In this document: piece after piece, positions 21,334-50,945 of the stretch
Numbering within the stretch: position 1 is the stretch's first letter
Layout: each line of letters begins with the position of its first letter
Assembly (NCBI GenBank): GCA_905178155.1
Contig: CAJINV010000001.1
Coordinates: 5,305,994-5,369,993 of the forward strand
DNA from: Amoebophrya sp. A120
Taxonomy: Eukaryota > Protista > Dinoflagellata
Direction: 5' to 3'
DNA: 64,000 bases
Position numbers and translations under genes: made by a program
The notes under the pieces: generated by a model
What the model was told of the DNA's origin: nothing
The model's input: only the letters and a program-made list of their open reading frames with translations
The model's database searches: none

Positions 21334-24300
21334 CTACATGTGGTCGATGATCAGTTTGTTGACGACCATATCCGCCATCCTCTTCCCAAACTTTTGTATC
21401 ATCTCATCCGTCATTCTGTCGGCGTTTGCTGCGATCGCAGTGAACACGCGAAGCAAGTCGGCCCCCTGTGCTGCAGCATGAAAGGTTCCCTTGGACAGAT
21501 TCGCCAGTTGCGTTAGGCGATCCCTGCTAGCATCCTTACCGAAAGCGACGTAGTGAACACCATTGACAAATCCCAACTGGCGGGCTGCCTGGTTGGCATC
21601 GCTTTCGTCCGTATGATGATTAGCGCCGTCGCTCATGAAGACGACGAGGCTCTGGCAGCCTGTTCTTGAGTTTCGCTGCAAAATCTCACGGGCAGCATTC
21701 AAGCCGAGCGAAAAGCAAGTACCTCCTCCGCTACATGCTACCTGGGTCCGCATGGCCTGCGAGAGACGGCAAGCTTCGAAGTGCGTTTGGACCTGGTTGC
21801 TGAACGTGACAACGGACACCAAGTCTTGCAGTCCTTGGTTCGCGTTTCGCTTTTGCAAATACCCTTGATAGGCCTGCATGAGCTCTATCCATGGCGTGAC
21901 CCCAGTGTTCGGGTCTGGCCACGTCATGGAATGAGAAGCGTCTAGCACGAAGACAACGTGAAAGCGATCCGCCACCGCTGTGTCGAACATGTCCACGGCA
22001 GTCATTCTTCGCTCTCGATCCTCTTTGGTTTCGTACCACACTCGCATCGCGTCCTCCATCATTTTCGTTGCTTCCTTCTTCAGCCGACAGAAGAGAAACT
22101 CAATCTGCTTTTCTCGCATTCGCTGCATTATTGTTTCCATCCGGCGTCCTCTTTGATTGTGATTCAGGTGGTCATCATTGACACTGGCAGGGTGGAGCTC
22201 CTGCCCGTGGCCCGGGGCGTCCGTCACTAAGACCAGAAAGCGAATCTGAATGAATTGAAGTGAATTGGTTTTGTGTTTGATTATACTAGGGCGCCTTTCA
22301 CATGTAAACTTGCTCTCTCTCGTCTGGCTCTACCATGAGGCATTTCTTTCTTGCCAAAGCAATGCAGTCTTCATCTGGCTCTGTCAAAGTCAGTAACAGT
22401 AAGTGATCAACGACGGCGGCCGTAATTACCTTTGAGCTCCAGCTCAGCTTTTCCAGCGCAGTATGGAGTCCGCCGGCGACATCTTCTGGCTCATCTCCAC
22501 CGCCACTCGCGCGGAGGCCACGCACGCGTGTCTTGAACAGCTCGTGATCAGAAGTAAAGTCCAAAATAGTGCGGGGGGCTAAGTGGTCTTGGTCCCCGAA
22601 GTCCTTGTAAGGAACCACGGCAAGTTTCATTTCCATATCCAGACCCTCGTGCTTCTCCTTGATTTTGTCCACTACCTTCGTCCCGATGACTTCTGCCTGG
22701 GTCTTGACTGCTTCCATCCAGGGCGTCATTGACCCCGTTGTATCGAGGACAAAGCACAAATCAATCGTTATGACCGAAGGCGCATTTCCCCGAACCAATT
22801 TCGCTTCACGTTCCCCTCGCAGTTGGTCCAGGTACCCAGTAAAAACCTAATTCAGAAGTTTTTTTTTAAGTATCTCACCGGAGCCAGCTTAGTGGCATTG
22901 CAATATCTTAGTCTTGAACCCGAGGCCAGCAAGGCTGTACGCTCAGCATTCCACCAGAGACTGGGATTAATATGCATTCGCATCCAAATGCATCAAAACA
23001 TGTGACATCGAGATTTATCTGAAATTTCAATTCCGGGTCAATAAGTACTTTCTTTGTGTCGAAGTCGCGCCAGATGCCGTCCGTTGTGCTGTAACTGCCT
23101 TTGTTATCCAATTCGCGCCCCTGCCAGCTTGGATCCTCTGTCTTCGAATCCGCGGAAGCATCTGGATCCTGCGTATACAGTGTTTGCAAAGCTGCTGGTA
23201 ATTCGCTAGGCACAGTGGCCAGGACCCACTTCCCGTAGCACTTTTGCACGAACAAACGTTCAAGCCCGAGCCCGATACCTGTTCATTGCAAAATGATGTT
23301 TGTGCCACAAACATGATGCTTGTGGGATTTATCCTCATCTTCATCCGTCTATAGAAGCGATTCCATTGACCTAAAGCTACACTTATATGCGCATCATGAG
23401 AACAAATTATCAGCACACAGAATCATACCAACAACCTCCACGCCCTCGTCTTGCGCGCGCAGCAGTGCCTGGCTCAACTTCAAACCGCAGGACCCGTACC
23501 CATCAGTAAGCACAAACAGCTTCCGTGGAACCCGCAGGCTGACGCCAGCCGCGTCGAACAGGTCAACTGAAGCATCAATGGCGTTGGCATCAAGCGAAGC
23601 ACAATCTTGGTCAAAGCGCAGGTGGTGCAGGAAGGAGAACATCGCGGCACGATCCCAACTCTGGTCGAAGTTTTTCACGAGACGGAATTTCTCCCCAAAA
23701 ACCGCAATTGAAAAGGTGTCGAGCCGCATCTCCAGAAGTGCACCAATCAACATGGTGGCCGCCTCGATGACTGCGAATGAACCCGCGCCATCCATAGACT
23801 GCGACACATCGATGAGAATCGAGACCATGTACTTCGCCCGGCCGCCTGCGCTCTTGTTACTGAAGAACTTCTTGTCGTTGAAGTCCGTGGCGATCGCTCG
23901 CGCGAGCCCTTGCATGTGCAAAGTGGGCCCTTTTACGTCGCGCCGGTGCCGGGTGGACGTGTTCTCGGGCAGTATATCGGCCTCCAGTATTGTTTTCATT
24001 TGCTCCACTGGCTCGCGCAGCATGTGCATTGCCTGAGACCAGGACTCCCCCGCTTTGGCAAGGAGCTCGGGCACAGCGCTGCTCGAGCGTGCATAGAAAT
24101 CCATGGAATACTGCAGCATCTTCGCGGAATCCGTGGCTGTAGACGATCCACTAGAGCCCGTGCTTGAGGCAGTCAACATCCCACGCGCAGAATCGGCGAA
24201 CGGAATGGCAGCGCCCGGGGAACTCGCTTCGTACAGCAAAGTCACCTCGTCACTCTTCTTCTTGAGGGCATCCGCGAGATTGAGCTTGCCCAAAACACTC

Positions 24301-25320
24301 GGAAGCTCGCGCAGGAACGTCGAGCTATCGAAATCCGGAGTCTGTGTTTCGCAAAATTCCAGTTCGCTTTCCTTTTCCGTAGTGGCATCGGCTTCGGCTT
24401 CGTCTGTTTTGCTATTCGTCTTGCCCACCTTTTTGTTCCGGGGCCGCATCTCTTTCAGAATCTTGCTGAATACCTGTGCGCGAAATTGAATTTGTGCAGC
24501 GTCCTCAACGCACAAAAATTGATAAACGTTATTGCATTTCAGTTTCTCACTCCTTTCCCTTTGTAGGAGAGGAAGCTGAAAAATAAAAAAAGAGAAAGAC
24601 GTGATTAAATACTTTGATCATGTGATCGCCAAGCAGCTGGGGGAGCGCATCACTTTCATCGTGATCGAGAAACTTCGACAGAATTCCCACCCGCTTCATC
24701 ATTTCCTGGATCTCACTCATCTGCCCTGCCGTCTTCTTGTCCCGAATCGTCACAAACAACATGTGGACATTGTACTTCTCCCACAAGCCCGTCCAATTCT
24801 GCTCGTTGTGCAATTCCTGGGAAAGCCCGTCCGTAATCATCAGGCATACACGGTGTACATTGGAAGGCTTCTCTTTGCCGCCCCAAACTTTCTTGGTGAG
24901 CGCCCAGAGCCCGCTTGCAAGGTGACTGCTTTCATCGTAGCTGAACGACTCGAGAATGCGCTGGCCAACCAAGGCGCTGAACGACTCGTCGAAGTCTTTT
25001 AGAAGGCGCTGGTTCTTCTGGTTTCCAAGTCGCCCGACCGCAGTTCGGCACTCGAGCTTTCGTAGAGTTTCCTGTTCAAAAAAAATTTGATTCTTATTCT
25101 TTATCTGGTTTGCTCCTTTCAGCCGCTGGCAATTTATCGTCCATTCGGGCACACAATGTCAACAAGATATTGGTGGACGACAGAGTAAGAATGCATTAAG
25201 CGTTTATGACAACGTGAACGTACTTCCTTACCTGCAGCACGACGAAAGCCTCTGCGGCCTGGTTGGCGAATCTGATGAAGGACCCGGAATTATCGAGCAG
25301 CAGGAGCCACTCGAATTTCG
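21334..25320 (-). other. Four tandem vWA (MIDAS) domains at the C-terminus of the giant gene
   Basis: DxSxS-type motifs LLLLDNSGS (~25290), ILIDVSQS (~23805), CFVLDTTGS (~22740) and VFVLDASHS (~21935). Each is followed by a MITDG, VLTDG, LVTDA or FMSDG strand. Confidence 0.85.
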
Positions 25321-28300
25321 GGAGTTCGGCACCCGACTGCTGATACATCTCCTGGAATTGCTGCCGCGCCATGCTGTAGAGCCGCCGAGAGAACTTTCCC
25401 AAGGGTCCAGATTGCGCTAGCGCTTCGTAAGTGTATTTCTCCGTCTTTTCGCGTGCTGCCTGTAAACGCAGTACGTCCGGAATCTGGGCTGGGTTCTTTT
25501 CTCGAGTCGTTTTCTTCGCCTTCTTGTAGTACTCGCTGAAGTCCATTTTCTGTGCCTCCTTCTGCAGGCGCTCCCGTGACCAGTTCAAGTCCATGGCTTT
25601 CGAGTGGATTTTGTCCACGTCGGCATCCCGTGCGAGGTCATCATACGTACCAAGCTGCAAATCGTCCGACTCACCCATTCCGGCCACTGCAGCGGGAGGC
25701 GCGCCCGCAGCACCGCCGCGAGCACCACGCTTCATCTTTTTCTGGTTTGCCAGATTGTCTATCAAGCGCCGAAGATGGTTTGTGTCGCCTCCCGCACTCC
25801 GATGTTGAAGCTGCTGATTTGCACGATCACCAGGGTTTTCGGCGCCAGCGCGACGAGCGGCCGTCGCGCTGTCCCCAATATTGCCGTCATCGTCTTGAAA
25901 ATCGAACTCGAGTTTCATCCCTTTCACGACCGCACCGAGAGTGTTTCCCTCGGCTAGATCGAGTGCGTCGTTGCCGGCATCATGCGGCTGCTCCTGGAAA
26001 TCGATATCATCCTCGTCTGCGTCGCCACACTTGTAGTCATCCAGTTCTGCGAGATCGGCCAACTCAAACCCAGTGTGCAAACTGTCGGCGACGTGCTCGG
26101 TACCACGAGCCGTTTGCGGAGCAGCATCGAAGCCTGCTGCGGTGTTCTGCGCATCGCCCTGAGCGAAGACGGTTTCCTCACCATTCCAGCCCTTCTGCGT
26201 CAACGAGTCGCCGGCGACATACTGCAATGCCTCCTTCAGCTCGATGGAGAAGTGCTGACCAACTGCATCTTTCGTTGTAGGAAAAACGCGCAGGTTCTTC
26301 GTCAAACCGCTTTTCTTTTCACGCAGCATTCGAATCAGTGCCTCTTGCCCCCCGCCGCGCTGGAGCTGCGAAACAATTAGATCAAACAGGAAAATGACGT
26401 TGATACAGCACTGCACCATTTTCGCGGGCAGGAATTCGAGATCCACACCCGTGCGGGAAAGCTCACACGTCCGAAAAAACTTCTCGGAGCACACCTCAGG
26501 CAAAGACGTCAATGATGCGACGTGCTTCAGAATTGCCTCGATGCTCAAAATTTTTCCCGGACGTAGAGACAAATTCATGAGCGAGTCCGCGCCGTCAACC
26601 CCGAAGTCCTGTGCTATTGCAAGCAGCTTTTTTCCTAGGTCATCGACCTCGAGTGAGAGCCTGTCCTTCTCTTGAGCGGGGTTTTGAATGTTGTTGTCTT
26701 CTGGCTCGACGTCCGGCTCCATCGCCACACTATTCGCAGTGTCGTCTCGTGGGCCTGCTGCATCAGCCGTTCCAGCGTCCGCGGTCCCGCTGGCATCGTG
26801 CGCAGCCTCATCGTCAGGCTCCGGCTGCAACTGGTCCTGCGGTGATTGCTGTGCATTCCCCTCATCGTCCGCGCTCTGGGGCACGGCGTGGCCGTTTGAT
26901 GATCCGCCCAAGTCCGCATTGAGATTCATCAGAGCTTCGTCATCAGACGCGGCATCGTCAAAAGACCTGGCTGGAGTTATAGAGTCTTGCGTGATTTGCT
27001 CTGCTTGAAGGAGGTCTGAGAGATTTTTCTCGACGATGCTAGGATCGTGCACGAGGCTCTCAGCAGCCTGCTGCTCGTCCTTTTGTTCGCGGCATACCTG
27101 GTTGCCCATTTTGGCTGGTGAAAGTTTGTTCATTTCAGAGAAAGCCAACAGCCGTAGATACTGCGCAGTAACCTTGGCGAAGTTGCACTTGGCGCAGCAG
27201 CTGCAGATTGCGGCCTTCAGCCCGTGTACGACTTGACGCGGGAAACCATATGCTCTGGCCATGTTCACTACGCGCGCAAATTCGTCAATGTGCTCGAAGG
27301 CCGTAGAGAGGAAGTCGCCCTCGTCTGATGTTGCGCGCATTGCTTGGCCAAAGCTGCTCCCCAAGCGTAAGACCTCCTCCGCCACGAAGCTGCGAGAGAC
27401 CTGCGCCGGTCCCGAACTGCTAGACGCGAGGGCAGTCATTGCATCGCCTTCCTCAAGCACAGATTTTAGTATTTCCACAGTTTTTCCAGGCTCCGCGGCA
27501 CACTTATCAAAGAGCTCAACCCAGAACGCGGCGTGCTTCTGCGTTTCGCTTTCGGCTTCTGTAAAATCTTTCATGTTTGCAATTTTGCGCAAAACATTTA
27601 CGCCGTTGTCCGAATGGATAGCGGATTCCAATTCGTCCCAGATATCGTGTAGCTTTTTGTTGCTTTGATTGCGACTCACGGCAGCAAGTGTCACTTTAGC
27701 CAGTTTGAAGGAATCCAGGTCACCCAACCCATGATTGAAGGACTGTGCGAGGAAACGAAACGCGTTCCTTTTAGTCGTGTGGTCAACGAATGCGGAAACG
27801 CACTCGCACGAAGCGGCCAAAAGACGCTGACTAGGAACCTTGCCTCCTTCCCGAACTTCGCAAATCATGGCGGTCAGTGCCTCGTGCCGCGGCTTGAAAC
27901 TTTCGTGATCAGTGATTCCCGTCGCGACTTCCTTTAGAACCGTCACTGCTGCTAGCAATGCGTGTTTGTGCTTCTTTTGCGAGACAGAGCGACCAAAAAC
28001 CTTGATGGAAGTCACAATCGCGCCGACACTAGCCTCATTTCTGGTAAGATTGTACTTCTGCAGAATTTTTTCAACCTCGCTTTTCCGCTCGCTCCTGTCC
28101 GTGTAGTCTTGTAAAAACATAGCGCCAATTTCTTCATCTAGAATCTCAATGAAGGTGGTCCAAACGGCATCCTGAGCATCGCTCAGGCTTGTGCAGCAAT
28201 CCCGAAATCCGAATTCCAGAATCTGCTTGAACGCCTGGAGCATCTTGTCTGGTGTGCCCTGCTGATGGTGAGAGCACGGTAACCAATGTCCAAGAGCTTG

Positions 28301-31300
28301 GGCCGCCATAGCTCCACCTGACACAGTTGCTCCTTCAAAAATCTTGGCGATAATTCTTCGTGACGTCTGCAGCTGGTACTCCTTCGAACGCAGCGCATCC
28401 AGAATACTGCTCTGCACAGCCTGGTACTTCTCGTATTCCGCTCTCTCCAGATGTCGTTCCGCCCATTGACCGGTCATGGAAAGAAGCTCGGGGAATAGCT
28501 CCGCCACTGAGGATTCAAAAACCGTGCTTGCAAACGTCGACGCCTCATCATGTTGTGTGAGGCCAGCACCGCACCTCAGTAAACGCGCCACGGTCGACAT
28601 GCCTGGCTCTCCTCCAGAGCGAAACGTTTGTACAAGTTCATGGAGAAAAGTGAGATGCGTCTTCCAATCGGCGTTGACGGATGACCGGCATGTGTTAATG
28701 ATCTTTACCAGCGCCTCCAGAACGCGCTCACTCTCGGTGCGATCAGAACAGTGCGCGTCTTGCAGTTGCTGCAGAACCTCCAGAGCCGTTGCGGAGAAGA
28801 AGGACCGACCGACCTCAGAAGTTTCGACGCTCATCAACGATGCAAGCGCTTGCTGCACTAACTTGGACACGGTGCAGCGTTCGGTGATAGTCGTTCCTTC
28901 TGCTCCTATCCCAGCCTCCAAGATCTTGCAGAATCTGTCGAGGTTTTGTGGTCGAGCCCTATTGCTATCGCAGCCGATGCCTGCCAGGAGCGAGGTGCAT
29001 ATCCGGAGATTTTTCTCGCTGACTGTCGCGGGCCCGTTCTTGCTGTCTGCCAGCAAAAGGCGGTAGACCGACATCAACACATGGCTGCCTGGGCTTAGCT
29101 CTCCGGCCGGCGTCTCTAGCCAAACAAGCGCAGAAGCAATCGCATCTTCTTGAACAGCGTCAATCTTCTCAGTGAGCTCTCCTATCGCTGCGGTGTGATT
29201 TACAAACTCGCTCCCCTGGATAAAAGTAACGACAAGACGCCGCATGGAATCTGCGTCGGGTTGCGTATCCGGTTGCTCTTCTTTCGTCTTCGCGAGATCC
29301 TCCACGATGCACAACGGCATGGCAGCAGCACGTTCGTACGGATGTATTGGCGACGAAGTATTGGCATGGAAAACGACGGATGCATGGAGTCCTTTTGCAA
29401 AAAATCCCTCCAGAAGTTCAGAAGCGCTTGCTCGTCTCCGCACCCCCGCTGCAGCAACGTTCGTTGCTTCTGTGCTCAGCGCAATACCTGTGTTAATTTC
29501 CGGCCCCGCACACTCGGGAGCTACGTCAACAAGTATCGGAACTCGCACCACCCGGGGCACCGGCTGGCCTTCAGGAGAGAGGTCGTATTCGTTTGTGCAA
29601 CGCACAACTAGTGAGCTTACATGCAATCCCGGTGGCGGCGCGCCTTCTGGTTCGAATCGGACCTGCAACGTGGTAGGCTCGTGGAATCTCGCCTGCTCCA
29701 AAGTCATCACCAAGGGGTCGCTTGCTGTGGCTGTCGCTGCGCCGTTGCCGGCTCGCGTTACGATGCCCAATTTACAACCTTGTGGAACGTTATCGAAGCA
29801 CATCTCTACGTCGCCATCACAGTTCCCACTATTCTCGATGTTAATGGTTCGATACGCCAGCGGTGTTGTGGCCTTTATGCGCCCGAAGTTAAGGATCTTG
29901 CACTGGTCGGAAACTTTCAGCACCGGTTTTTTCGGATTGAAGCGGAATTCTACCGAAAGTGGCGCTTTCGGTTCTGGTTTGCATTGAAATTTGATCCGTC
30001 CAGTACACGGCTTTAGCGAGAAGGGAACGTATTCAAGCATCACCGTCTGACTCTTCTGCGCTTCGAGCTTCACAACCGGTGGCTGCATTCGAAATCTGCT
30101 CTGCTTGGCGGCGAGACCGATGATCGCATCGACGTACCCGCTATTTCTGAAAGTTACGTGCTTCTTGTTTGATACCAAATTTCCCGCAGGCGCGGTACTC
30201 GCATCCAGCGAAAAGATTGGTCCTGACGTCGAGTTTGCATAGCCATTTTGCGGATTCCTAATCGGCAGAACAGTGACATCCGGAACGCCAGTTCGGACCT
30301 CCAGCGTGAAGCAGCAATGCTCAGTGCCAAAGTGAACGGTCATCTCGACACGTTTGTGCTCTGCTCTGTAAGGGGAAATGCTCAACTCTGCCTGCCACGT
30401 CGAAAGGTCCCCAACTGCGCTCAGCTCCCCTTCGTTTCGATCGAGTTTGAATGTGCTTCTCAGGTCCCTGAGATCAACCCTTACTTTCACATCGACTTTT
30501 CCTCTATTCACTATTCGCAGGGTTCTGCGAGCCATGTCGTTGATCCGCATGTCTGGGAAGCGAATCACTTGTTTGTGCGCAAGGCGTGTCCGCTGGTTGC
30601 CGTTCTCTAGGAAGAACTTCAGTTTCGGCTTCACCACCTCCGCACGTATCGAGCGTGTGATGATATTGCTAGTCGATCCGACCGCTATTTTTAGTGTTGC
30701 CCTGACCGACTCCTCTTTTCCCATTCCTGGCAGCATTTTCAGTTCAAGCAGAGCCGAGCCAAGGGGATCGAGCAGTAATCGCGGCGGGTCCACTGACAGC
30801 TGCGAAAGGAAAGGTGAGTCCCGTTCTATTTCTGCACGAATCTGCAGTGGGCCATGCGTTTCGTTCTTCAGTCGAAAGTCTACCGTTTTCAGTCCCTCGA
30901 TTGACGCGATGCGGTTCTCGAAATCCACTGTGCCACCGGGTAGGTCCACGACAGAAACACTTGCATCTTCGAACGTGACCTTTCCAACAAGGATGCAGCG
31001 GTTGCGACCGTCTATGGCAAGGTCGAAAACAGCACTGTGGGGTCCCACGCCGACATTGTCGGAAACGAGATCGACGTGTACGATTCCAGACTCGCCAGGT
31101 CGGAGACCGGGAATATCAGACGGGCTCAGGACGAATGGCGCTGCAGCAGCTCCTCCTAGATTTTAAATAGAAGTGAAGATGCTTTACCAATCACTGCGCT
31201 AGCAGCAGGAGCCTCACAGAACTGCTGCGCCCATGCATAATTCACTCCGGAGAGGAAGAACCAAACAGCTGAAAAGAATGGCTACAAAAATCCAAACTAA

Positions 31301-34300
31301 AAATCAGGCAGATTGCATTTATACCTGCAGCGTGATTTGAGAGTGTAATGTCAACAGTCTCTTCGCTTTTATTTTCGACCCGAAGGTACTTCTGATCTAG
31401 AACTCCAACGCCGCGCGTCGCGTACCCGAAGTCAAAGCGATGCTCTTGCCAAGAAACGTTAACGCCATGCCCTGCTGATTGATTATCGACGAGCGTAAGA
31501 ACCACATAGCTCGGAGAAGTGGGAAAGTGCGCAAACAAGTTTCCAATCATCTTTGCTTCCCGGCAGTGCTCAATCTTGGAGATGTCTGGCCGACGTAATC
31601 CTCGCTGACTCAACGTTGCTAGCAATGTCAGCTGCTGTTTCTTGCGTGCAAGTATCGTCTTTAAGGGGCCCCGCATCGTATCGATCCGCCGCTTCGCGCC
31701 TCGCCCTGCTGGTAACCGCTTCTCCAGATCGTCGCAAAACTTCTCATACACGTCCCTTGTCACTTCGAAGTTGTCTAATTCGTGGCTGGTCTTGATAGAC
31801 TGCGCTTGCGCACGCAAGAGCAGGCTTCCAATCAAACACACATCCTCCACAAAAGACCAAAGCGCTGGCGCAACTTCTTCTTCGGCGATATGCAGCATCT
31901 CCTTGAAAAAGCGGAGCATGTCTGCACTCCAAACACGCTTGACGGACCGTGTAGGACATGGATCATCAGCAGGCGCCTCCACCGGAGATATCCCTTCGGA
32001 AAACGCGTTTTTCGCCAATTCAGATTCCGCGAGCTTACTGTTACAGATCTCTGTGATAGCTCTCTGCATGCGCTCCATCGCGCTTTCCTCATTACCTTGC
32101 CGAAGGGATTCAGCAATTTGATCGCCCTGCGCAGCAAGCATGCGATGCAGCTTTTTCAAATCCTTGCGATACTTCTCCATAGCCTTTGCGACGTCTCCCT
32201 TTTCATAGTCCTGAACATCACGGTCGTATTCCGTAGTTGGGTCCGCCGGTTTCCGTTCTTCGCTCTCTTTGGTCTTAATTTCGGACTGAATATGTCCTAA
32301 ATGTCTTTCGATGGCACTTCGGGCTCCTTTTTCCGCGGAGTACGATCGTGTTGCGTCTCCCAATTCATCGAGGCACTGCTCTAAACACGAGCACTCTGGA
32401 TTGAAGCCCACAAATTTTGTTTCTGCAGAAGGCAAGAAAGTGTACTCCACGGCATCGTCTCTATCCTGCCGGCTGAAACGCACTTCCGAGCTACCCCAAA
32501 AGGGACGCTGGAATCCCTTTTGAAATTTTGGCGCTTTGTAATACCACCACGCCGCCTGATCAGGTAGGTGGCAGTTCCCAACGAGAAGAACATACACGCC
32601 CTTGCAGGAAGGTCCCTCCAATTCTGAGAAGGGTATGGTGAAGTCGTAAATCCAATCTCCTCTAGCACTTCTTTCCACCGGGACGAGCTTTTCCCGCAAC
32701 AGCTTGCCTGCGTAAGGTTTTTTGTTCTGGTCCACCTCCATCTGCGAGATTATGACTCTATGTGCGTATCTGTTGTAGACACGACGATAGTTGTCATAAT
32801 CTTGATCGCTACTTCCGAGCGTGACTCGCACATTCGCGATTTTGTCCTTCGAACCTTCGGACACGTAGCGTTGCAAAAAAGCACGATGGTCAGCGTCGTC
32901 GGTGTGGACCGTACGAATCAAACTGAAGCACGTCAGGACCTCCGGTTCCTGCCCTGAAATTCTATTCGTCCCATGTTGTTGCGCAGCTTTATAAAGCCAA
33001 AAAAGTAACTCTTCGCACAGTCGCTCTTGGTTTTCTTCCAAGTCTGCGATTTGCTTCTTCACTCGTAAGAGCTCCTGCTCCTTTTTGTCGCGCTCGCTTT
33101 TCTTTGAAAAGAGGAAGTTTTTGATGCCGCTTAATAATGTGCTGAGCGAGCTTTTCCGGGATTCATGCCGACGCTTGATGAAGACCGTCGCTGCATCCTT
33201 ATGGCCCTGCTCTTTCTCGACAAAATTTTTGATACCAGCTTCCACCTGGGTGAGATGTCGCATGTTTAATGTTGTGAGCCTCACCGTGGAAGCGTCGTGC
33301 AATTGGGAACGAAGGAAATCCGTGATGCAAACGTTTTCCGCAAGGAGCAGGTCGGTGAGCACTACCTCGGCCTCCGTGTCAGCATGTTCGATTCCTCCTC
33401 GCAACAACTTGTCAATTTTCTCGCAGCACTGGTGCTGAAAGGCAAGCAAGGACGAAATCTTGCCGACATCTGCAGCAGCGTCAAAAACACCAACTAGTAC
33501 AGTGCAGATATTCTGCAGAACTGCGGTGGCAGCAGTCGCGATGAATTCGTATCTGTCCAGAGTCTCCGGCTGCAATCCATTTCTTCCACGAATCCCGCGA
33601 CGCAATGCAGGATTCAAATCGACCAGGTCCAAAAGTTGTTCCTCAAGCATGGCATCCGAGTCCCCCAGCAAATGTCGACGTGCGTTCCGTGTCGCGGTCA
33701 ACTCTGATGCTGTAGAAGTCACTCTTCGACTCGCTGCTGCTTTGAAAAACTCCTTCGCACAAATCTGTGAAATCTGCACGTTGTTTGCGGTAAAGGGCTG
33801 AAACTTTATGTCGGTCACATCATTGTCGAGCGCCTGTGCAAAGGAGTACGTGGCTGCAACTTGCTCGCAGTCCAGTTTTCCTCCCTCTACTCGTGATGCC
33901 GACTGCGGATCTGTCAACGCAAAAGCGGTAAAACTGTCAAGCAGGTCGGTGAACGGAATAGAGCCGCCGTCACCTCCTGCAGGCAGATTTAGCCGCTTCC
34001 GACCGCCGCGCTCCTCGCTGGTGCACTTTTGTAACTGAATGTAAAAGTGCTTCACCGCGTATGCCGTCGGCAAGAGCATGGAAGCTGAGCAAATGCGCTG
34101 CGCCACGAGGTGCGATAGAAAACACGGATTTGTTGCCTCGTCTCCCGCAATGTCGTTTGTAGGTAGTGCTGCGATTCCGGCGCTCCATGTCTGCAGCTGA
34201 GATTCTAGAGTGCGAAGGATCCGGTTCAGGTCCGCCGTCTTTTCCTCGCTTTCGAACCACAGTCCAACCACGTCAGCAACTTGTTCAAGGTCATCCCGCA

Positions 34301-40300: not shown

Positions 40301-43300
40301 ACACGTGAAGCATGATGAGCCGGTTCTGGAAAGCGCCGGACAACTTGTGCGATTGAACGCGGTAAGGGTTTTCGGTCATGAAAAGTCGAAAATCCGGGTG
40401 GATGCCGCCATTGGCTTTTGTTAGCTCTCCCTTGCCGTCAGCTACTTCGAACAGGTTCAGACTCGGCCGCTCCTCTACCAAGCTGTTGAGACGCTCGATA
40501 ATTTCTGGTGGCGCGCAGTTGATGTGCCGCAGAAAAACCCAGTCGCCGTTCCTGAGAGCCTGAACGAGCGGCGCTTCGACAAATTCGAAACCCATGGTCG
40601 AACTACTGGCAGCACCTTGCTCGCTGGAGTGATTCTGGTACCGGATCCATCGCTTGCGGTGTGCGTTTAGCTCGCGTATGAAATCTACGTTCTTTCGTCG
40701 CGTGCTCTCGGCAAGGTCCCCGGTCATCAGATTTGCCTGCACAAGATCGATGAAAAAATCCACGGCCTGAAGGAATACGTTCGCGAGTGCGGAGGATTTA
40801 AGGCGTTCCTGCCCTGCGTCCCGATCATTCCCGGCCTGCTGCATGTCGGACTCGGAATCGGAGCTGTATCCGTCCGACGGGTCGTCTTCTTCCTCAGCGA
40901 GCCGTTGTTTCTTTTTACGACGCCCATCACTTCCTGCGTCACTAGCTCTGCCGCTCGCTTGGTCGGCCTTGGTCCGTTTGTTGGCACACTGTACTTTACC
41001 TCTCACAGAGTCGTCGGGTTGCGGTGCATCTAGTAGGTCCCCCGCCTGCCCGCTATCACGGGACCCTGTCGACAACCGCGCGCGCTTTTTTGTGCGCTTT
41101 CCGAAGTCACTGTCGCTTCCTGCCGTCGATAGCAGGCGTTTCCTTCCAAGACCTGATTCCGGCTTCGGTGACAGGTCAGCATCGTCAGCCATATCCACAT
41201 CACGCATACAGCCAATTTCCTCGGCCTCGCAACTAGAATGAGCTGCGATACTGTCCACCTCGCGCTTGCATTTTCTTATTTCTGGTTCCAGGCGATCCAC
41301 AAACTGCTCCAGCTTTTTTCTCACTGCAGGCGCACTCCTCGGCGACAGAATGGGAACGCACGAGACCAGGACGTGTCGAATAATAGCGTCAAACAGAGTC
41401 GTGGTATTTGTGAATAGCTGCGGTGCTTCCTCACGGCGGTCAACGGGAAGCAGTTGCCCGATTACGTCGCCGATGTCCATACTCTGCGTCATGGGGACTT
41501 CCACTAAAGTATTTCCTGTAAGAGAAGCCAGTTCGCGCACCATTGAAGCTTTTCCCGCGGTCGCACCTTTCAGCAGCGCTGCTCGCCCGCTTTGACACGC
41601 CCCAGCAATTGCTTCCAAGTAATCGTCCACCTCGGGCACGTGCAAAAAGTCCTTTGCTACCATGGCACCTTCGGCATTCCGATCTGTTCCGTCCTTTTTC
41701 GGAAGATAGACGACTCCGACCTGCACGTAGTCCGGACTAGAGGAGTCGATTGTCGTAACGGTGACCTGCTTCTGCTGCTGGGAAGCTTTGCGCTTCTGCG
41801 CTGCGGTCTGCCGTGCGCGAGGTTCGGGAAAGTGTTCCTCTGCCAACGAAACAAGGCGGGCAAAATCTGGGCTATCGGGCGAATAGCGGTGCGCATAGAT
41901 CAGCTGCACAAATTTTCGCATACACCGCTGCCAAATGACGGCTGCAGCTTCCTCCTCGTAGAACGAGGCATGCTGGAGCAAATCAGTTGCGCACCCTTTT
42001 AGTACATCCCGCACTTTAATCAGATCACGCATGTTAAAACTTTGCGCCCCGATCTCTCGCGCATCAGCCAAATTCTGGACGCTGGCGTGAAACTTCATGA
42101 TTTGTGGGAGGTACTTTTGCATGATGGGACCCAATCCGGGCGGCAGCTCGTCGTAATACAATTTGCTCACAATTTCCCCTAGCTCCTCAGGCCCGTAGTC
42201 TTCTACGCTGACAGTAACGAAGAGGTTCTGAATAGAGCGCGACAGCTTATTTCTGTTTCCGCCAGTGGACACTGGATTCATCGTCGCGAAAATCACCGGC
42301 CGACGCAGGCGGTCGCCAAACGCAAGCACCTCATCCTTCCCAGGAATTCGAAAAAAACTGATTCCACGGTCAAAAAGAGGCGCAATCGCGTCCAGAACTT
42401 CGGGCGGCATCAAATTCATTTCGTCCAGGATAATCCAACGCCCCTGCTTTACGGCTCGCAGGAGCGCGCCATCGCGCCACCGAAAGACCCGACGCCCGCT
42501 GGAATCGCATTCCGGAACCGTGCTACCGAAAAGCTGCTCCAGGCTGGTGGATGCGGAGCAGTTGATGCGTTCGTGCTCATGTCCGCACAGTTTCGAAGCC
42601 TGCTTCGGGCACTCCGTCTTTCCCACACCGGGCGGTCCAACCAAAAGTTGCGGCGCCGGACTGTCCGACGAAAGACCGACAAAAATTCGCAAGAGGTTCC
42701 GCAAAAGTGTAGGTGTCGCACAACAGTAGAGGCGATCCAACATCTCGTAGCTCTTCGGGGATGAGGTGCTTGGGCTCGCCGCAAGTGGCATGGCGACGGA
42801 CCCATTGTAAGAGAACAACATGTGAGAGTCGTCGGAAAGAAAAAGATCTTTCAAGTCCTGGGGCACGGGTGGTGATGTGAAAACTGTTTCCTCGGCGCCG
42901 AGCCACTTCTTCGCAATTCTCTCCGCCGCTGCTGGTGTCAAACTATCGAAGATGAACGAGCGCGCAGCCATCAGCAGCTTCAAGTCTCGAACTTTCGCGG
43001 CTTCTTGCGACGTAGAGTTACTCAACCGCTGAGCGCAAAGAAAGTCAACGATTCGCAACATCGTGCGAAGGTCGAGAGGAAACGAAGAACATTCCTCGTC
43101 ACTCGCCACCAGCTCCTGCAGCTCTGCAAGCCTCCCCGCAAACCAATCTGCGTTTGCTGGTGAAAACACCTTGTCGCGACGGAGTTCCACCGCTGTGACA
43201 TCCTTAATGTCCTTCGGTTCGTATGCCGGCACGTGAATCTCGGTGAAGCGAGACAGTGTGGCTGGACTGAGCTTGAGTCGACTTGCATCGCCTGCTACGT

Positions 43301-46300
43301 GAGCAGTAGCGAAAACTTGAAAGGACTGGGGCACGCGAACGTTGCAGCTGCACTTCGCAGAAACATCTTCCGTAAGATTTAGCATGCGGTCTTCACACTC
43401 CAGCACCGGGTTGATCCGCTCGGTCACAGCTTGGCTCGGAAGATGAAAATCTTCCAGGCGCAAGGCAGTTCCTTGCTGCACAGCTTCGGTAACTGGTCCG
43501 TCGCGAAAGAGGAAAAGCATGTCGCCTGCAGACGCACCACCAAAGGCGGAATCACGGATGAGTTTGATGCGATCAAGCAGCAGATCACAGTGCTTATCAG
43601 TCGCAAGTTGCGTCAATGCCTTTAATAAAATATCCAGAGCTGCTAGCAAGTCCTGCTCCTCCTTGCTGTCAACCCGAAGTGCTGTCGAGGATGAGCTCGT
43701 TGGCTGCTGCGAATCTTCCGCTGCTCGCGACGAACCTTCTGGCTGCTTGTTGTTCTCGTTTGCTTGAGGCATCGACACATCACCTTCCACCTTTTTGACG
43801 TCGTTCTTTGCGGCCGGCATTTCTGCCTTCGCAGGGACTTTTTTGTTCTCCTGCGAGTCGGAGTCACTACTATACCCATCGCTGAAGTCCATGTCCTCAT
43901 CGTCTTTTAGCATCGATGCTGCCGGGGCGGCAGGAGCCTGGTCTTTTGGCGGCTCCCGTTCTTCACTTTTCACACTGACGACTTCCATCTCGTCGTCGAC
44001 GGAGAGAAAATCTAAATTACTGAGGAAGTCCGCGTCGTCGACATTGCCTGCTGGTGGCGCGTTCCCACTCGCTGTCCACATTTTCTCCACATCCTCTATT
44101 GTTGGATTTTCCTCGATGTCCAGCAGCGACGAGCTAGAGGACACTCCTGGGAGTGTCCGAAGAACATTTTGCTCTTCCTCTCGTAGGCGCTGGCGCTCCT
44201 GTTCTTTCGCCATGGGATCGTGGTCGACAAAAATGTAGCGGTAAGAAACGTCCTCGGCATCTTCGTCCTCTGCGCGAGCGGCTTCCTGCAAGGCTATCGC
44301 TATGCGCTCTTCCTCCTGTAGCAGTGCCTGCGCGAACTTGGAATACTTCTGGAGAGCCTGCTCACAATGTGCTTTCTGTTGCTTCCAACCACCGCCCCCG
44401 TCAGCGAAGGCCTCGCACCGCTTGATGATGCTAGTTGCTGTCCGTTCCACGTAAACCAGAGCGCTAGCCTTGCTCCACGGCGTAACCTGGCCCAGCAAGC
44501 CCGACGCTTCCGTTTCGGCGGTCAGGTGCACTGTGGGCAACGACGGCTGTCCCATGACGTCCGCAAAAGCTTGCAGAATCTCTGATTTGTGCCCTGTGGG
44601 GCCATATAGCAGCACGGGTTCGGAGTTCAAGCTTGCGAATGCGATGCGAGCAAAGGTTCGTTGGAAAACTTCCGGGGGCTCCTTCCCCTTCTGCCAGTGC
44701 CGCGAGCGATTCAGCTTCCCGCCCCGTATCTTAAATTCCACCTGACCGTCTTTTACACTAATTCCATCCGAGTTCTGCTCCAGCTTGATATTGCTTTGTG
44801 CGTTCTCCTTTTTGTCGGGCCCAGAAAACAACTTCTTGCCGAAAGCGCTGCGGAAGCTGTCTTTAATCGTCTCTAGCTGGAGCTGCCCGCTTTTTGTGGT
44901 GGTGGAAATTTTCTGCGAAAGAAGGAGATAGCCAACTTGCGGATTTAGCAAGAAGCTTGCGCTATTCTGCCCCGTCGTTGCGGCATCACGATCAATCCAC
45001 TTGATCAGGGCGCGGAGAGTGATTCGCGCAGTCTTGGACGTAGCGCGCGCATTCAGCTCGTGGTACAGTTTGGCCAAGTTTGTCGCGTCCTTCTTTGACA
45101 ACTTCAAATCCGGCCGCTTGGCGTACTGCCTCTTCAAAAGAATCTCCGCTAGCTCCGTTTCGGGAAAGTCAGGGACTTGGACCTCCAAAAAGCGACTGCG
45201 AATTGCCACCGGAAGCCGAGCACGCCCGGAATACGATGACGGATTCTGTGTGGCAAAGAAACGAAATCCTGGCGGCACGACGATGGTTCGGTAGCCCGGA
45301 ACATGGAACAATCGCTGCCCTTCGAGCACGGGCGCCAGCAGACTTAAAATACCGGGTGGGGCAAGGTTAATCTCATCCGCGAGAAACCACTTCCCATCTT
45401 CCAAGGCCCGCACCAGCGCGCCGCGCTGGTACTGCAGTCCGCGAGACCCGATTTGCATCCAGCAGCCCAAATAATCCTGCGCGGTGGTGCTGTCTGTATT
45501 GTTGACATGCTCCAAGCCGTGCATTCCCTCGGGGCGCCGCGCGGCTAGCGATTGAATTAGCGAGGTTTTTCCGACCGAAGCCGGTCCCTCCAGCAGAACA
45601 GGCTTTCCGATTTCGATGCTGCACAACACGGATGCCGCGAGGCTTCGGCGCGAGACCGTAAGTACATGCCGACTTCGTTCGGGTGCGTTTTTCTGTGCAG
45701 TGTTCGAAGTCGTAAGCGCGCTGACCAGGTCCAATTCTTCGGCTACTTGCTGCGTATCGTATTTCTGAATCTTCTTCGGAATTTTTGCAACCTCTAACAA
45801 ATTGCTTTTGCCGAGCATGTCCAAGACGCAGAACTGAAGAGCCTGAAAAAGCACTTTGTCCGGATCCTGATCGGGTAACTTGTTCCGCAACGACCAGTAG
45901 CAGTCAAGCAAACTGACGATCGTTCGGGTCGTGATCTTAGCTTCCGGGTTGCTATGCCGCGCTCTTCCGCTCAAAATCCAACTCCAGACACCCCAGCCTA
46001 CATTTACAACGGTCGTCAAATTCTTTGCTTCCTCCCCCGTGACAGCGACGGCCAGCAATTTCATCTCCGCCTTAAACGCTTTCTCCTCCGCTGCCATACC
46101 CTCTAGAGCCACAATTTGGAATCGATTTGCCATGGCCGGCGAAAGTTTCTGCTCCGCCGCGTGGCCGCCAGTTATGGTCGCGACGACTTGAAACGCCGGA
46201 GACACGGGCACCTCGTCTTGCCCTCCTTTCTCGGCGAGAAACAAGAACGGAGGCACTTCGAGCACCGGGTTCATCCGCTCCGCAACCGAAGCGTCACAAT

Positions 46301-49300
46301 CGTGTAAGTTGTCCAAACGAACCCAGCCCCCGTCCCGGGCGACGTTTGTCAGCTGCCCGTCGTTCCACTCGATCACAGTTCCTCCGCCGGCTGCGGGACT
46401 GAACTGACCAAACAAGGAACAGACTTCCGTTTCTGGTGTCAGGCAAATGCTGGTGATTGGTTTTCCCAGAAGAAGCGCTATGATGCGCACCAGCTCGCTG
46501 CAGCCAGATCCACTATCGCCCTTAATCATGATGGGCTGTTGCGGATTGCGCAAGCTCCGTAAGAACCCGGCCATGGCGGCAATGACGCGCGGCGACAACA
46601 TGAAGGGAACCTCGGCCCTGACGTGCTCAATATTCTGCTGCTCGGCTCGGAGCAAGAACGCTTGTTCCGCTGGACTGAAGGACTGTCTCTTTTCGGTCGA
46701 CTTGGAGGACCCCCGCTTTGTGGATGTGGCAGCAGAAGCGGTCTTCTCGATTGTAAAATTGTCTCTTGCAGCTTCGCAAAAAACTTTGTCTAAGACCAAT
46801 TTGCTTTCCGCGTGCCGAACTTTGGCTCGGTAAAATGCGCAACCAACGGAAAGAACTTCTTCTTCGGACTTCCGTGTTCGCTTCTCTGCCAGCCTCATCC
46901 ACTCTGAAAACCAACCTGCATCGATTCGGTAGACTCCGTAAATGTCGATGTGCGTCTGTGCCAGTAGTGCATCGCATGCTTTCTGGTGAACCTGCCAGTA
47001 TCGTTTCATCCACGGAGTCTCGCTGTGCTCCTGCGGCATAGTCGCTGGAGTGCGCGGTTGCGTGAATCCGCCGACGCGCAAATGCTGTGATGTCAAACTC
47101 CACTCCGTAGCACGCAGATCCGTTTCTGAAAATTCCTTGAAGACGTCCTGGATTGCAGCTTTCAGTGGCTCCTGCGGCACGCGGCCAGAGTAATGATACC
47201 AGGCTTCGGAAGCCAGCGCGCGACCCACCGCATCATCCCCACCGCGTTGCAGCGCGGCGAGCTCCGCACGCAAGTACGGCACCCAAGCATGTACTGTACG
47301 AAACGTAATATCTGCCAGGGGACTGCTCTGGCTCTGCGCGGCAACTGCACTGGTGCCCGCAAGGAGACTGCGCAGCTTGTCGTGGAACTTCACAACCAGA
47401 AGTGCAGCTTCGTTTCGCGATGCCTTCTGAAAAACTCCCAAAGTAGAACTGTTCACTGACAAGAGGCCAGAGACGACCTCCTGGAGGTCCGACGCAGGTA
47501 ATTCGAGAAATTCCACGACCCGAAAGTGTGCCAGAAACGCCGGCGATTGCTTTTCCCGCTTGCCCTTGTATTTTCCCGAGTTTGGATTCTGCGTAGCGAA
47601 CAAACGAAAATCTGGGTGCATTCGCAGGTGTTGGGCGAAATCGGACTTGGAGCTGCTAGGATCCCGAAGAGTGATATTCTTCTGATCAAGAGCGCTTTCC
47701 AACGTGTGCAAAATTTCAGCCGGTGCCAGATTCAGTTCGTCCAACATCAGCCACTTTCCCTCCGTGAACGCACAGACGAACGGGCCATGAATGAATTCCA
47801 TCGCGCCACTCCGGCCTAACACGAGCTTTCCGAAGAAGTCATCGTACTCAATAGACCCCGACATGTTCATTCGAACCAGGTCCTTACCCCCTACGCGGGC
47901 CGCTTCTTGCACCGTCGCAGTTTTCGCGACCCCGGTAGCCCCCTGCAAGAGAAGTGGAGCGGAATCACGGGCAGCTTGCTGGACGATCTTCACGTTGCGC
48001 ATGGTCGCCGGAGTTTGCACAAAGTGGTCCGATTTGCTCGCAGACACGTCTTTTCCACAGACCTCAGGCTTCAAGACAGCACGCGGGTCGCCGGCGTTCT
48101 TGCGCAGAAGGTTGCTTACTTCCACGAAGTGCTCGCGTAGAGACGGAATCGATACCGCCTCCCCCCGCTGACGAGACCGCACCTCGTCGAGGTAGAAGGA
48201 GTCATTGGCTAGTAGTACATTGCTGCTCGGAAGCGACGCCCGCGAATCGCTTTTTCCAGACACGCTTTCCGCGAGAATTTTTAGTTGCTCGAGTTCTTCT
48301 TCGCTGAAGTCGTACAAGAACGCCATGATGCGAATCGCGCGAAACTTGGTTCCGCGAAACCATTGATGAACCTCAGCCTCTTCCGGATTTGGAAGCATCA
48401 TTTCTATCCAGGTTGTGTCCAGACACCTGCACACATTTTTCAGGTTGGACCGGGAAGACTCGCCCCGCACAGATTCGATTTCGTTGCACACCATATCTAG
48501 CACAAGCCGTGCCGGTATTTCGTCGAGCGCCAAACACCTTGTCAAAAAATCTCGTGCAGGTCCATCCCTCGTTTCTGCATCGTCCACGGCATTGTCGGAA
48601 GTGTATAGGTACGCCAGCTGAAAAAGCAGCGGCAGGTAATCCACAGCTGTTTGTTCGTCCAAGCTTTCTTTGTGAGTGAAAAAAGACTTCTCTACTAGGC
48701 GTGACCGCATGCTTTGCATGGCTTCTTCTTTCTGCAGCTCCATGTCTAAGTCTTCGTCAGAAGTGGAGAAGGCATCGCGTCTGCTCAAAGAATGCAGTAT
48801 CAGGGTTGCAGCGCGGAATAGTATGAAGGACTGCTGACTCGGTTGTACAGCCAGCAACTTCGAAACAAAGTCGAAAAGCATTTTCTCAGAAACTTTTCCG
48901 GCATCCTGCCATTCGCACTTGCTCCAAAAATCGACTGGGAGTGCGGTGATGAAACGTGACACCACCTCTAGGACATCCTCGCACGGCGAGTCCTCCGTTG
49001 CGCACTTGAGCAAGAATTCGAGAATTCTGGGGTTTTGCTTGTGGTGGCAACCCCATCCCTTCAGCGCCTCAGGGCGCTTGGACACGACCTGAATAAGGTG
49101 CCACAATTCGCGATTCTTGCTTTCGGTCTTCTGCCCCACGTCGCACAGCAGAGTGAGAATGTCCAAATCGTAGACCAAAAAGAAGGTCAGAAACTTTTCC
49201 CAGCAGAGCGACAGCGGATCAGATAGCACAGAATTTTCATCGCCTGACTGCTCGCGTCCACCCGATACACCAACGGCGCCTGTTGGTTGTGGCTTCGTGG

Positions 49301-50945
49301 AGATCAAGAAGCCACGCAGCTTGTCCACGCAGGTCCTCAGCTTCCCCTGGAGCAGCTCCCGCTGCTCGCTGGCCAAGTCGTGTCCACTCGGCTGTCCCCC
49401 TGCGGCGCCGAGTTGCTCGCGCGAGTCTGCCGACCAAGTCGCGACAAACGCAAGCAATTTGCGAAGCGCTGTCTTGACCACGTCTCCTTCCTGCGTCCAG
49501 AAAGTTTTCTCTGACCCCTTCGACAAAGCTGCTGCATGCAAACAATGGAGGCAAAGAAACAGGATTAGGAGCGATCCAGAGGCTTCCGTGGGCGAAGTTT
49601 CCGCTGTGTCTTCCATCCGCCCACCCTGTACAGATTTATTTTTATGTTAATGCATGCAAAGCGCCGATGTTTTTTTTCAACTTTACCGCGGCTCCTTGAA
49701 TGCCAACTACATTTCACAATCAAACTCAAGGCCTAGAAGAAAGATTGCGACCTTTACCTGCTGCTGCACCAACTCGATGACGAGATCGAAACCCTGCTTG
49801 ACGCTTTCCTTGCAGCGCACCACGTCTGCCATTAGGTCCAGCAGCACCGCGCAGGTCGCCGCACCCAATGTCGAAGATGTTAACACCTGACGTTGAATTT
49901 CTAGGAGGCATTCGTCGCTGAGCAACGAATGCTTCTTGTGAACCATCTGCAAGAGCTGGGCCAAGCTTTGATCAGTGTTCGCCTCGTTCGATTTCTTGCA
50001 CACGGCTTGCACGAGGGCATGCAGCATCTGGGGATTCTTCTCATCTGCGGCGATGGGGAGCGAGAGCTGCGACGTTTGATGGTGCTGAAGTAAACTGGGC
50101 AAGTAGTACTCTGCTAAATTCAGAAGAAGACGCTCCCGTGCCTCGGATTCGGTTGACACCCGGCCGTCCTGCAGCACTGGAACGACCACATGATCGTCAA
50201 AAATCAAAGCAGCCCCAAACACTCGCTTGTCCTGCAACTGAGTGTCGCGAAGCCGGTGCGACCCGGCTATCGCCTCTTGCAACCAGTCGGAGTCCTCGCG
50301 TGAATTGCTTGAATTGGCGAGGACCTTTTCGCGAAATATTTTGGCATCCTCATCCTTTGTGCTGTCTCTAGCCTTCACTCTATCAAGCTTACTTGTGGTG
50401 AGAACCGCCCGAAACAATCGCTCCGCTGCCGCCCATTCGAGTTTGTCTGGACCGTACGAGCCGTCCTTGTCCTCTTCTGACGTTGTGGCACAGGTCAACT
50501 GCAGCAGCTCGAGAATCGCAACCACTTCGGAAGGTTGTCTGGCACGCTGGTCCTTGGTGCCCTTTCTGCCCTCCCGCGCGATAGGGAGCAGCTGGACCAG
50601 CTGACTTCGAAAGCGCGCAACGCGACCTAGTCGAAGCGCCGTCTGTGCCTTGGCGTCACCGCTTCCATATCCATGGTAGAACCAATGCAAAAAAAGGCAG
50701 TAATCCCAGGCAACTCCGCTCGATCCCACGCTGGCAAAGACTTCCTTCGCGAGCTCGAGCGAGAAGACCTTGCGGAAAATATGCTTCTCGTCTTTGCTGG
50801 TCAACTCCGCCCTAGCAATCGCTCTACCTCCGACAAACGCAGAAACCTCCTGGCTAAACCTTTTTTCTCTATCAAGGCTTTTCTCCTGCTTCCATTCCAC
50901 CAGAGACTTTTCAAGTGTCTCGATCGTGCAGCTTGAGCGGGCCAT
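21334..50945 (-). CDS. Giant midasin-like AAA+ / ASH-Ig / multi-vWA protein, about 9,505 aa; join(50945..49758, 49625..31325, 31155..25232, 25071..24613, 24473..23429, 23278..23007, 22846..22430, 22245..21334)
   Basis: Seven GT-AG introns connect eight consecutive ORFs, each in the correct phase. Exon total is 28,518 nt (9,506 codons). Several junctions complete vWA motifs (FVVLQ|ETLRKLE, EVVG|IGLG, WSSK|IRFLVLVTDAPGHG). Confidence 0.85.
29520..31450 (-). other. Tandem ASH/PapD-like Ig domains (about 5-6) within the giant gene
   Basis: Repeated F(D/N)FG..hxhxN(S/R)G pattern: FDFGYA..YLRVENKS, VDFEN..FRLKNET, IRFPD..LRIVNRG, HVTFRNSG, LNFGR..INIENSG. Beta-strand-like alternating hydrophobic residues. 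Confidence 0.6.
40310..47960 (-). other. Six tandem MoxR/midasin-type AAA+ modules within the giant gene
   Basis: Walker A sites GATGVAKT (~47930), GDSGSGCS (~46510), GPASVGKT (~45575), GPTGHKS (~44590), GPPGVGKT (~42625) and GATAGKAS (~41555). Midasin-type G.W..LDE.NL and FR.FAT.NP motifs. Confidence 0.9.

Follow-up and report, generated by a model that had tools for sequence, protein, structure and literature searches.

Sequence comparisons place a giant AAA-vWA protein of Amoebophrya in an unnamed sister family of midasin

A 64,000-nucleotide stretch of the Amoebophrya sp. A120 genome (contig CAJINV010000001.1; hereafter the window, with positions counted from its first letter) contains a single coding sequence on the minus strand (21334..50945; 8 exons, 7 GT-AG introns, 28,476 nucleotides, one terminal stop) for a protein of 9,491 amino acids (aa) that carries six AAA modules, a long arm, an array of immunoglobulin-like (Ig) domains and four von Willebrand factor A (vWA) domains. 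The gene is real and encodes one polypeptide. As judged from its sequence, it belongs to a conserved, patchily spread and unnamed eukaryotic sister family of midasin (Mdn1/Rea1) and is not an Mdn1 orthologue. The motif residues of this family point to a pattern that is new here (that is, active AAA1, AAA3 and AAA5 and inactive AAA2, AAA4 and AAA6), and ATP hydrolysis at three alternating sites of a six-part ring is likely.

An alternating pattern of catalytic residues in the AAA modules

Across 18 family proteins, the Walker B Asp-Glu pair is present at AAA1 to AAA6 in 18, 0, 18, 0, 18 and 0 proteins, whereas 56 midasins (12 of 68 midasin-type matches without six complete modules were left out) carry it in 1, 56, 56, 56, 56 and 1; Mdn1 requires catalytic AAA2-AAA5, and its AAA1 and AAA6 are non-catalytic (PMC6920918, PMC6286127). 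A further 37 family proteins, labelled as family or midasin with the motif columns masked, have the Walker B pair in 31/32, 0/36, 34/35, 0/23, 21/22 and 0/17 of the modules in the same order and the arginine finger in 28/32, 36/36, 31/35, 23/23, 0/22 and 17/17. The finger of the even modules, which faces an active neighbour, is thus always kept, and that of AAA5, which would face the inactive AAA4, is found in 0/18 and 0/22 proteins. A Bryopsis paralogue (P0123, BSKO_02574) has lost the Walker B pair at AAA1, AAA3 and AAA5 too and is possibly a fully inactive copy.

A predicted model of AAA1-AAA3 (predicted local distance difference test, 75; predicted template modelling score, 0.79) is closest among solved rings to dynein (template modelling score 0.55-0.57 at best, compared with 0.46-0.48 for Rea1), at sequence identities of 12-15% to dynein and 18-20% to Rea1; among 13 sequence matches of the AAA region in the PDB, Rea1/Mdn1 is closest (E 2e-99). 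The helix-2 gap of AAA2 spans 7 aa here and 10 aa on average in the family, against a mean of 117 aa in Mdn1. In Rea1, the AAA2 insert plugs the pore and binds Rix1, recruiting Rea1 to pre-60S, and AAA6 is without a lid (PMC6286127). The family, unlike Rea1, is predicted to have kept the AAA6 lid, with weak profile matches to the modelled lid in 7/35 family proteins compared with 2/118 Mdn1 proteins (controls, 0/30 and 0/104).

Separation from midasin

A tree of the AAA region (31 family and 9 Mdn1 rows, after removal of six near-duplicate rows, the root being placed on Mdn1) divides the family from Mdn1 by a 100/100 branch, and animals, streptophytes and stramenopiles fall in the Mdn1 clade. 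When 13 prokaryotic or viral modules served as outgroup (30/36 family and 30/163 Mdn1 proteins, without dynein, the deep relations among modules being poorly resolved), each family module was monophyletic and lay outside the Mdn1 module of the same position (0.95-1.0). Family and Mdn1 have in common the split between odd and even modules (0.987; 0.88 with the outgroup) and a collinear module order.

The protein resembles midasin in its concatenation of six clade-7 AAA modules, arranged in a matching order, inserts in even modules, a long helical tail, an acidic linker and a C-terminal vWA domain (vWA2) that bears an Mdn1-type MIDAS (an adhesion site that depends on a metal ion) with a preceding finger element. 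Unlike Mdn1, it shows catalytic AAA1, AAA3 and AAA5 rather than AAA2-AAA5, no AAA2 insert but about 300 aa in AAA4, a predicted AAA6 small (lid) domain, an N-terminal domain two to three times longer, an Ig array and four vWA domains; it falls outside the Mdn1 clade, and its family is longer (about 7,300-9,500 aa), patchy and multi-copy. The Pfam families AAA_lid_5 and MDN1_4th have no match in this protein. The original prediction that this is a self-contained AAA-vWA machine, and not the ribosome-biogenesis midasin, is therefore supported by the separate clade, the differing catalytic pattern, the missing insert and lid families, and the presence of an AAA ring and four MIDAS-bearing vWA domains in one chain. 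Its treatment of the gene as a one-off was mistaken: when the best 150 clusters at 50% identity are sorted, 42 belong to the family (37 new and 5 seen before) and the other 108 are midasin-type.

Members and spread of the family

The best 15 of 83 matches (410-1,095 bits) are without the midasin lid families PF17865 and PF21108, and named midasins appear from 374 bits; a search with the tail of P0008 found 8 proteins among 2,121 candidates. All four vWA domains stand together with AAA and Ig domains in one protein in P0008, P0011, P0084 and P0088, and a partial head follows the AAA and Ig domains in P0086 (without vWA4) and P0007 (which ends past vWA1). Green algae, bdelloid rotifers and further assemblies repeat the full layout, with its six AAA modules, arm of helices, about five Ig domains of ASH-like type and four vWA domains. 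AAA-ring relatives, which are often paralogues, are likewise present in Amoebophrya, in a chrysophyte and in a thraustochytrid. Named carriers are Amoebophrya sp. AT5.2, Mesostigma, Apatococcus, Bryopsis, Epipyxis, Hondaea, Rotaria and Adineta; for Amoebophrya, Mesostigma, Epipyxis, Hondaea and Adineta, the vWA head was not covered by the records or not assessed. The nearest relative, from Amoebophrya sp. AT5.2, reaches 74% over the AAA core columns. Paralogues number four in Rotaria sp. Silwood1 (53-81% identity) and three in Bryopsis, and median AAA identity is 50% within the family compared with 62% within Mdn1.

Members from R. magnacalcarata are 7,920-7,976 aa long. A 7,479-aa gene of the same rotifer, reported to be of unknown function and to resemble midasin along a stretch of about 1,000 residues with a similarity of about 25% (PMC7943196), likely belongs to the family as well; the excerpted text of that paper defines neither a family nor a mechanism. 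No description of the family or its catalytic pattern was found in the full-text literature (mostly non-subscription papers, supplements excluded), and the excerpts of PMC7159879, PMC11573180 and PMC6431247 hold nothing on it. Family members labelled 'Dynein heavy chain, cytoplasmic' or 'Midasin' in NCBI or UniRef (P0112 from Hondaea, P0088 and P0007) are mislabelled, and such entries in rotifers, green algae and thraustochytrids represent an unstudied family.

Three copies, one of them broken, lie in a 170-kb eukaryote-like stretch of G001, a GTDB record of Putridiphycobacter sp. (G001:C1:180001-440000, L093-L105; also L106). A bacterial origin of these copies was rejected: the stretch has a GC content of about 0.50 compared with 0.34-0.36 at five places at 2 to 6 Mb, an open-reading-frame cover of 0.62 compared with 0.82-0.89, and fragmented genes, which together point to a likely chimeric assembly. 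Viral contigs gave no match with a single query and four single-AAA matches with the alignment. Other prokaryotic or viral matches are mostly a single AAA gene beside a vWA gene of 520-690 aa, and in the bacterial or viral contigs of L003-L007 and L012-L014 a MoxR-type AAA gene adjoins a vWA gene of this size with a midasin-type finger element.

Domain organization

Pfam finds six AAA_5 stretches (E 3.9e-94), custom profiles likewise find six AAA modules, and the two together recover the layout that had been proposed from the letters of the window (six AAA modules, Ig array and four vWA domains). All features below lie on the minus strand.

47960..50945 (-): N-terminal domain, about 950 aa, no Pfam match, split by intron 1
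47484..47957 (-): AAA1 core, catalytic residues intact (K964, D1025-E1026), own arginine finger lost (H1096)
46083..46538 (-): AAA2 core, non-catalytic (C1438 replaces the Walker A Lys, N1502 the Walker B Glu), arginine finger R1564 kept, without helix-2 insert
45150..45605 (-): AAA3 core, intact (K1749, D1813-E1814, R1874)
43209..44621 (-): AAA4 core, non-catalytic Walker B (E2454-D2455), R2522 kept, acidic insert of about 318 aa
42180..42653 (-): AAA5 core, Walker A and B intact (K2732, D2797-E2798), arginine finger lost (L2864)
40281..41579 (-): AAA6 core, non-catalytic (R3429-H3430), R3498 kept, insert of about 284 aa
39876..40202 (-): predicted AAA6 small (lid) domain, from the structure model and weak profile matches
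31524..39866 (-): arm, about 2,800 aa; the model shows helical bundles for the first about 340 aa, which the family conserves; the remainder is without a confident model
29465..31496 (-): about five ASH/PapD-like Ig domains in an array; intron 2 falls within the first
25655..29464 (-): probably helical region of about 720 aa (by eye), then acidic low-complexity linker of about 550 aa
24613..25324 (-): vWA1, MIDAS residues D8451/S8453/S8455 and D8552, spans intron 3; midasin-type duplicate without finger
23166..24059 (-): finger element and vWA2, D8846/S8848/S8850 and D8948, corresponds to the Mdn1 MIDAS domain; spans intron 5, with intron 4 upstream
21994..22771 (-): vWA3 (Pfam VWA_4 type), D9084/T9086/S9088 and D9197, spans intron 7, with intron 6 upstream
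21430..21969 (-): vWA4, D9290/S9292/S9294 and D9394, probably nested within vWA3 (beta6-alpha7 loop)
21337..21423 (-): C-terminal helix with invariant D9489, probably the last helix of vWA3

The residues before AAA1 number 735 (family median) compared with 301 in Mdn1, and the acidic linker is 17% D+E and 9% K+R. In the Ig array, Cep192_D3 (34.7 bits) and HYDIN/VesB Ig (30.8 bits) score over their Pfam cut-offs and ASH (26.8 bits) just under; five ASH-type Asn motifs are spaced 104-121 aa apart, and a rotifer relative also has an Ig match above cut-off (39.9 bits). A search for the array among proteins of 3,480-5,000 aa gave 0/3,860 candidates, which is weak evidence. The model made for residues 3400-4300 cannot be relied on past about residue 4000; its helical part gave generic bundle matches only (Z of 10.3 or less) and no Foldseek match at E 0.001. 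No transmembrane-like window above 1.9 on the Kyte-Doolittle scale occurs in the protein.

The vWA head

Although vWA2, vWA3 and vWA4 exceed Pfam cut-offs, vWA1 reached only E 0.037 on its exon-4 piece and was recovered by profile. The first MIDAS motif of vWA1 to vWA4 is conserved in 11/11, 9/9, 9/9 and 7/7 proteins, and the second Asp is invariant where covered. The vWA2 domain with its preceding element matches S. pombe Mdn1 4447-4642 (E 1.4e-07), and vWA1 is a duplicate of this midasin-type vWA. In P0086 and P0089, which are without vWA4, the last strand of vWA3 passes straight into the same C-terminal helix, so that vWA4 is likely inserted in the beta6-alpha7 loop of vWA3 (that is, nested within it); the lack of vWA4 in P0086 could be a gene-model skip. 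As the beta6-alpha7 loop and helix of integrin I domains shift between closed and open states (PMC3840939), we infer that the grips of vWA3 and vWA4 may be coupled. The C-terminus of NorD latches onto the NorQ ring, and a finger docks in the pore in NorQD (PMC13036017); the extreme C-terminus with the invariant D9489 recalls this latch by analogy.

A proposed grip-and-pull mechanism

We consider it probable that the protein is a single-chain remodeller of large protein complexes that grips and pulls in the manner of Rea1 and NorQD, with a target other than the ribosome. By homology to these two, the AAA modules would close into a ring with three alternating hydrolytic sites, on which vWA2 would dock, its finger inserted into the pore; the MIDAS sites would, again by homology, hold acidic residues of the target through Mg2+, and ATP-driven movement of the ring, passed through the arm (here taken as roughly 4,800 aa), would strain and free the target as in Rea1, which provides the precedent for force through an arm (PMC11603028). 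Further steps are suggested from sequence only: the four MIDAS sites could act as a multi-point grip, vWA4 (nested before the last vWA3 helix) could tune the affinity of vWA3 under load, and the Ig array may determine where the protein sits or how far it reaches.

Several points weigh against this picture. The protein is known here from its sequence and predicted models, and its separateness from Mdn1 comes from comparison rather than from a second MDN1 seen in the A120 genome; moreover, module order and the odd/even split are common to the family and Mdn1. Some of the 37 held-out proteins are near training proteins (P0122, 87% to P0015). Nucleotide binding at the even sites is not a universal trait of the family, as AAA2 and AAA6 of both this protein and the Amoebophrya relative have lost Walker A residues too. 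The arm profile has no match to the Rea1 linker (0/68 midasins), and the arm model, although helical, found no Rea1-type linker (stem, middle and top) among the matches listed; force transmission may therefore differ and is the weakest step of the mechanism.

Known systems each share part of this design. The dynein heavy chain likewise concatenates six AAA modules, has an AAA6 small domain and gave the best template modelling score to the AAA1-AAA3 model. Dynein AAA1 and AAA3 are active and AAA2 is non-hydrolysing, as here. Only weak dynein P-loop matches were found in the protein by Pfam, however, with no match for the tail, linker, stalk or microtubule-binding domain, and it possesses four vWA domains whereas dynein has none (PMC3495828). 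NorQ-NorD, CbbQ-CbbO and MoxR-vWA pairs are of the same AAA clade and, as here, combine a clade-7 AAA ring with a MIDAS-bearing vWA domain with finger, but they consist of a homohexamer and a separate partner, in contrast to the single chain seen here, in which the modules are specialised and four vWA domains are present.

Biological role

The leading proposal for the role, although tentative and below an even chance, is defence or damage clearance, in which the protein would dismantle invader-derived or damage-marked assemblies in the cell. We favour it because the family is patchy, often multi-copy (with one broken copy) and faster diverging (50% versus 62%). It is weakened by what the relatives show: neither domain swapping nor an effector, RING or toxin domain was seen in them. 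MoxR-vWA conflict systems possess a third core component and variable effector domains (PMC7159879), whereas the architecture here appears fixed; effector domains had no Pfam match in this protein or four relatives, although long regions of these proteins are unannotated. A role other than defence, cilia or the ribosome comes fairly close to an even chance.

The original prediction also drew a parallel to RNF213 (mysterin), a giant protein that has six AAA modules in a single chain and takes part in cell-autonomous defence. This stays an analogy with no sequence or Pfam link: a RING/RZ E3 module has no Pfam match at E 0.05, and no RNF213 chain is among the 13 PDB sequence matches of the AAA region, the closest being Rea1/Mdn1.

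It is unlikely that the protein remodels centrosomes, basal bodies or axonemes during their assembly, targeted by the ASH-like Ig array, even though Cep192_D3-like and HYDIN/VesB-like Ig matches exceed cut-offs (in a rotifer relative too), the ring fold resembles dynein and the named carriers belong to lineages in which flagellated or ciliated stages occur. No vertebrate or insect family member was found among 925 scored candidates, although midasins of these animals matched at lower scores; multi-copy, fast-evolving behaviour would be unusual for core ciliary parts, and PapD/ASH-like Ig domains occur outside cilia too.

A midasin-like ribosomal role is quite improbable. The closest solved relatives are Rea1/Mdn1, with collinear modules and the same odd/even split, vWA2 is of the Mdn1 MIDAS type and several members are labelled 'Midasin' in UniRef; but the protein is without both the AAA2 insert for Rix1 binding and the catalytic AAA2 and AAA4 that Mdn1 requires to support growth, the family forms a separate clade while animals, streptophytes and stramenopiles sit with Mdn1, and several paralogues occur per genome, one copy being broken.

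A possible third branch of the dynein-midasin lineage

Dynein and midasin are the only named descendants of a six-AAA ancestor (PMC3495828, PMC2837639). A wider and rather doubtful reading is that the family represents a third ancient branch of this lineage that dates back to the last eukaryotic common ancestor, has disappeared from most model organisms and might have retained the ancestral design (active AAA1, a complete sixth module and strict alternation from a triplicated pair) as a three-stroke motor whose load-sensing four-MIDAS head dismantles invader or cytoskeletal assemblies. If true, such a lineage would offer a natural test of the division of labour in single-chain AAA rings and of the form of their ancestor; the predictions are three hydrolytic sites, one finger-bearing vWA domain and a nested vWA domain.

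Gene model and transcript support

The coding sequence derives from eight long minus-strand frames between 50969 and 21334, joined at GT-AG ends as the original prediction had laid out (a 28.5-kb sequence for about 9,500 aa with seven introns and an 18.3-kb second exon). All introns are GT..AG, with a GC content of 0.37-0.43 compared with 0.53-0.55 for exons.

Exon 1 (-): 50945-49758; intron 1: 49757-49626 (132 nucleotides)
Exon 2 (-): 49625-31325 (18,301 nucleotides); intron 2: 31324-31156 (169 nucleotides)
Exon 3 (-): 31155-25232; intron 3: 25231-25072 (160 nucleotides)
Exon 4 (-): 25071-24613; intron 4: 24612-24474 (139 nucleotides)
Exon 5 (-): 24473-23429; intron 5: 23428-23279 (150 nucleotides)
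Exon 6 (-): 23278-23049; intron 6: 23048-22847 (202 nucleotides)
Exon 7 (-): 22846-22430; intron 7: 22429-22246 (184 nucleotides)
Exon 8 (-): 22245-21334
Probable 3' untranslated region (-): 20518..21333, into which a spliced contig continues without gaps as far as 20518

As each junction allows 5-19 frame-keeping GTR..YAG pairs, an open join alone is little proof, and the joins were checked on contigs of sequencing runs X1 and X3 (two samples of one study, their RNA type guessed). Introns 2, 3, 4, 5, 6 and 7 are exactly spliced out in these contigs (6/7 junctions), one of which (5,210 nucleotides, 26562 to 20518) crosses five introns and contains all four vWA domains. A 37-nucleotide form of intron 4 (in frame, GT-AG; an in-frame AG at the end of 24576-24612 that would add 34 aa) was ruled out, as the contigs hold the 139-nucleotide splice only. 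Intron 1 and most of exon 2 have no RNA-type contig cover, which is absent or patchy beyond about 36,400, and raw RNA runs X9 and X10 gave 0 and 2 reads on the gene, too few to bear on this part. We accept intron 1 by homology because the Amoebophrya AT5.2 relative aligns through it from residue 8 (22/51 identical columns before and 26/69 after).

Continuity from AAA1 to the C-terminus is thus established stepwise, through the frame of exon 2, junction 2, the frame of exon 3 and junctions 3-7, rather than on one molecule, and internal poly-A or trans-splice sites are conceivable because no single contig covers the whole transcript. That neighbouring genes were fused by the model, the AAA and vWA parts being separate proteins as in bacterial MoxR-vWA pairs, would fit this gap in cover and the end of the AT5.2 record at about residue 6,000, but is very improbable given that exon 2 is a single frame from AAA1 to the first Ig domain, that junctions 2-7 are seen spliced, that AAA, Ig and vWA domains stand within one protein in five relatives (P0008, P0011, P0084, P0086 and P0088) and that relatives in G001 form a single open frame of 8,205-8,237 aa.

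Neighbouring genes

Other frames in the window, all on the minus strand, include a 2,231-aa ABCA-like transporter frame (52263-58958) with two ABC domains, a GC content of 0.60-0.65, markedly above its neighbours, and contig cover from 51817 in X3; an XPG/GEN1-like nuclease (15082-17949; XPG_I, E 1e-09); several zf-C2HC_2 finger frames (9862-14550) that are probably one spliced ZC2HC1-like gene; a pyrimidine 5'-nucleotidase (7599-9335; UMPH-1); and a dual-specificity phosphatase fragment (62844-63386).

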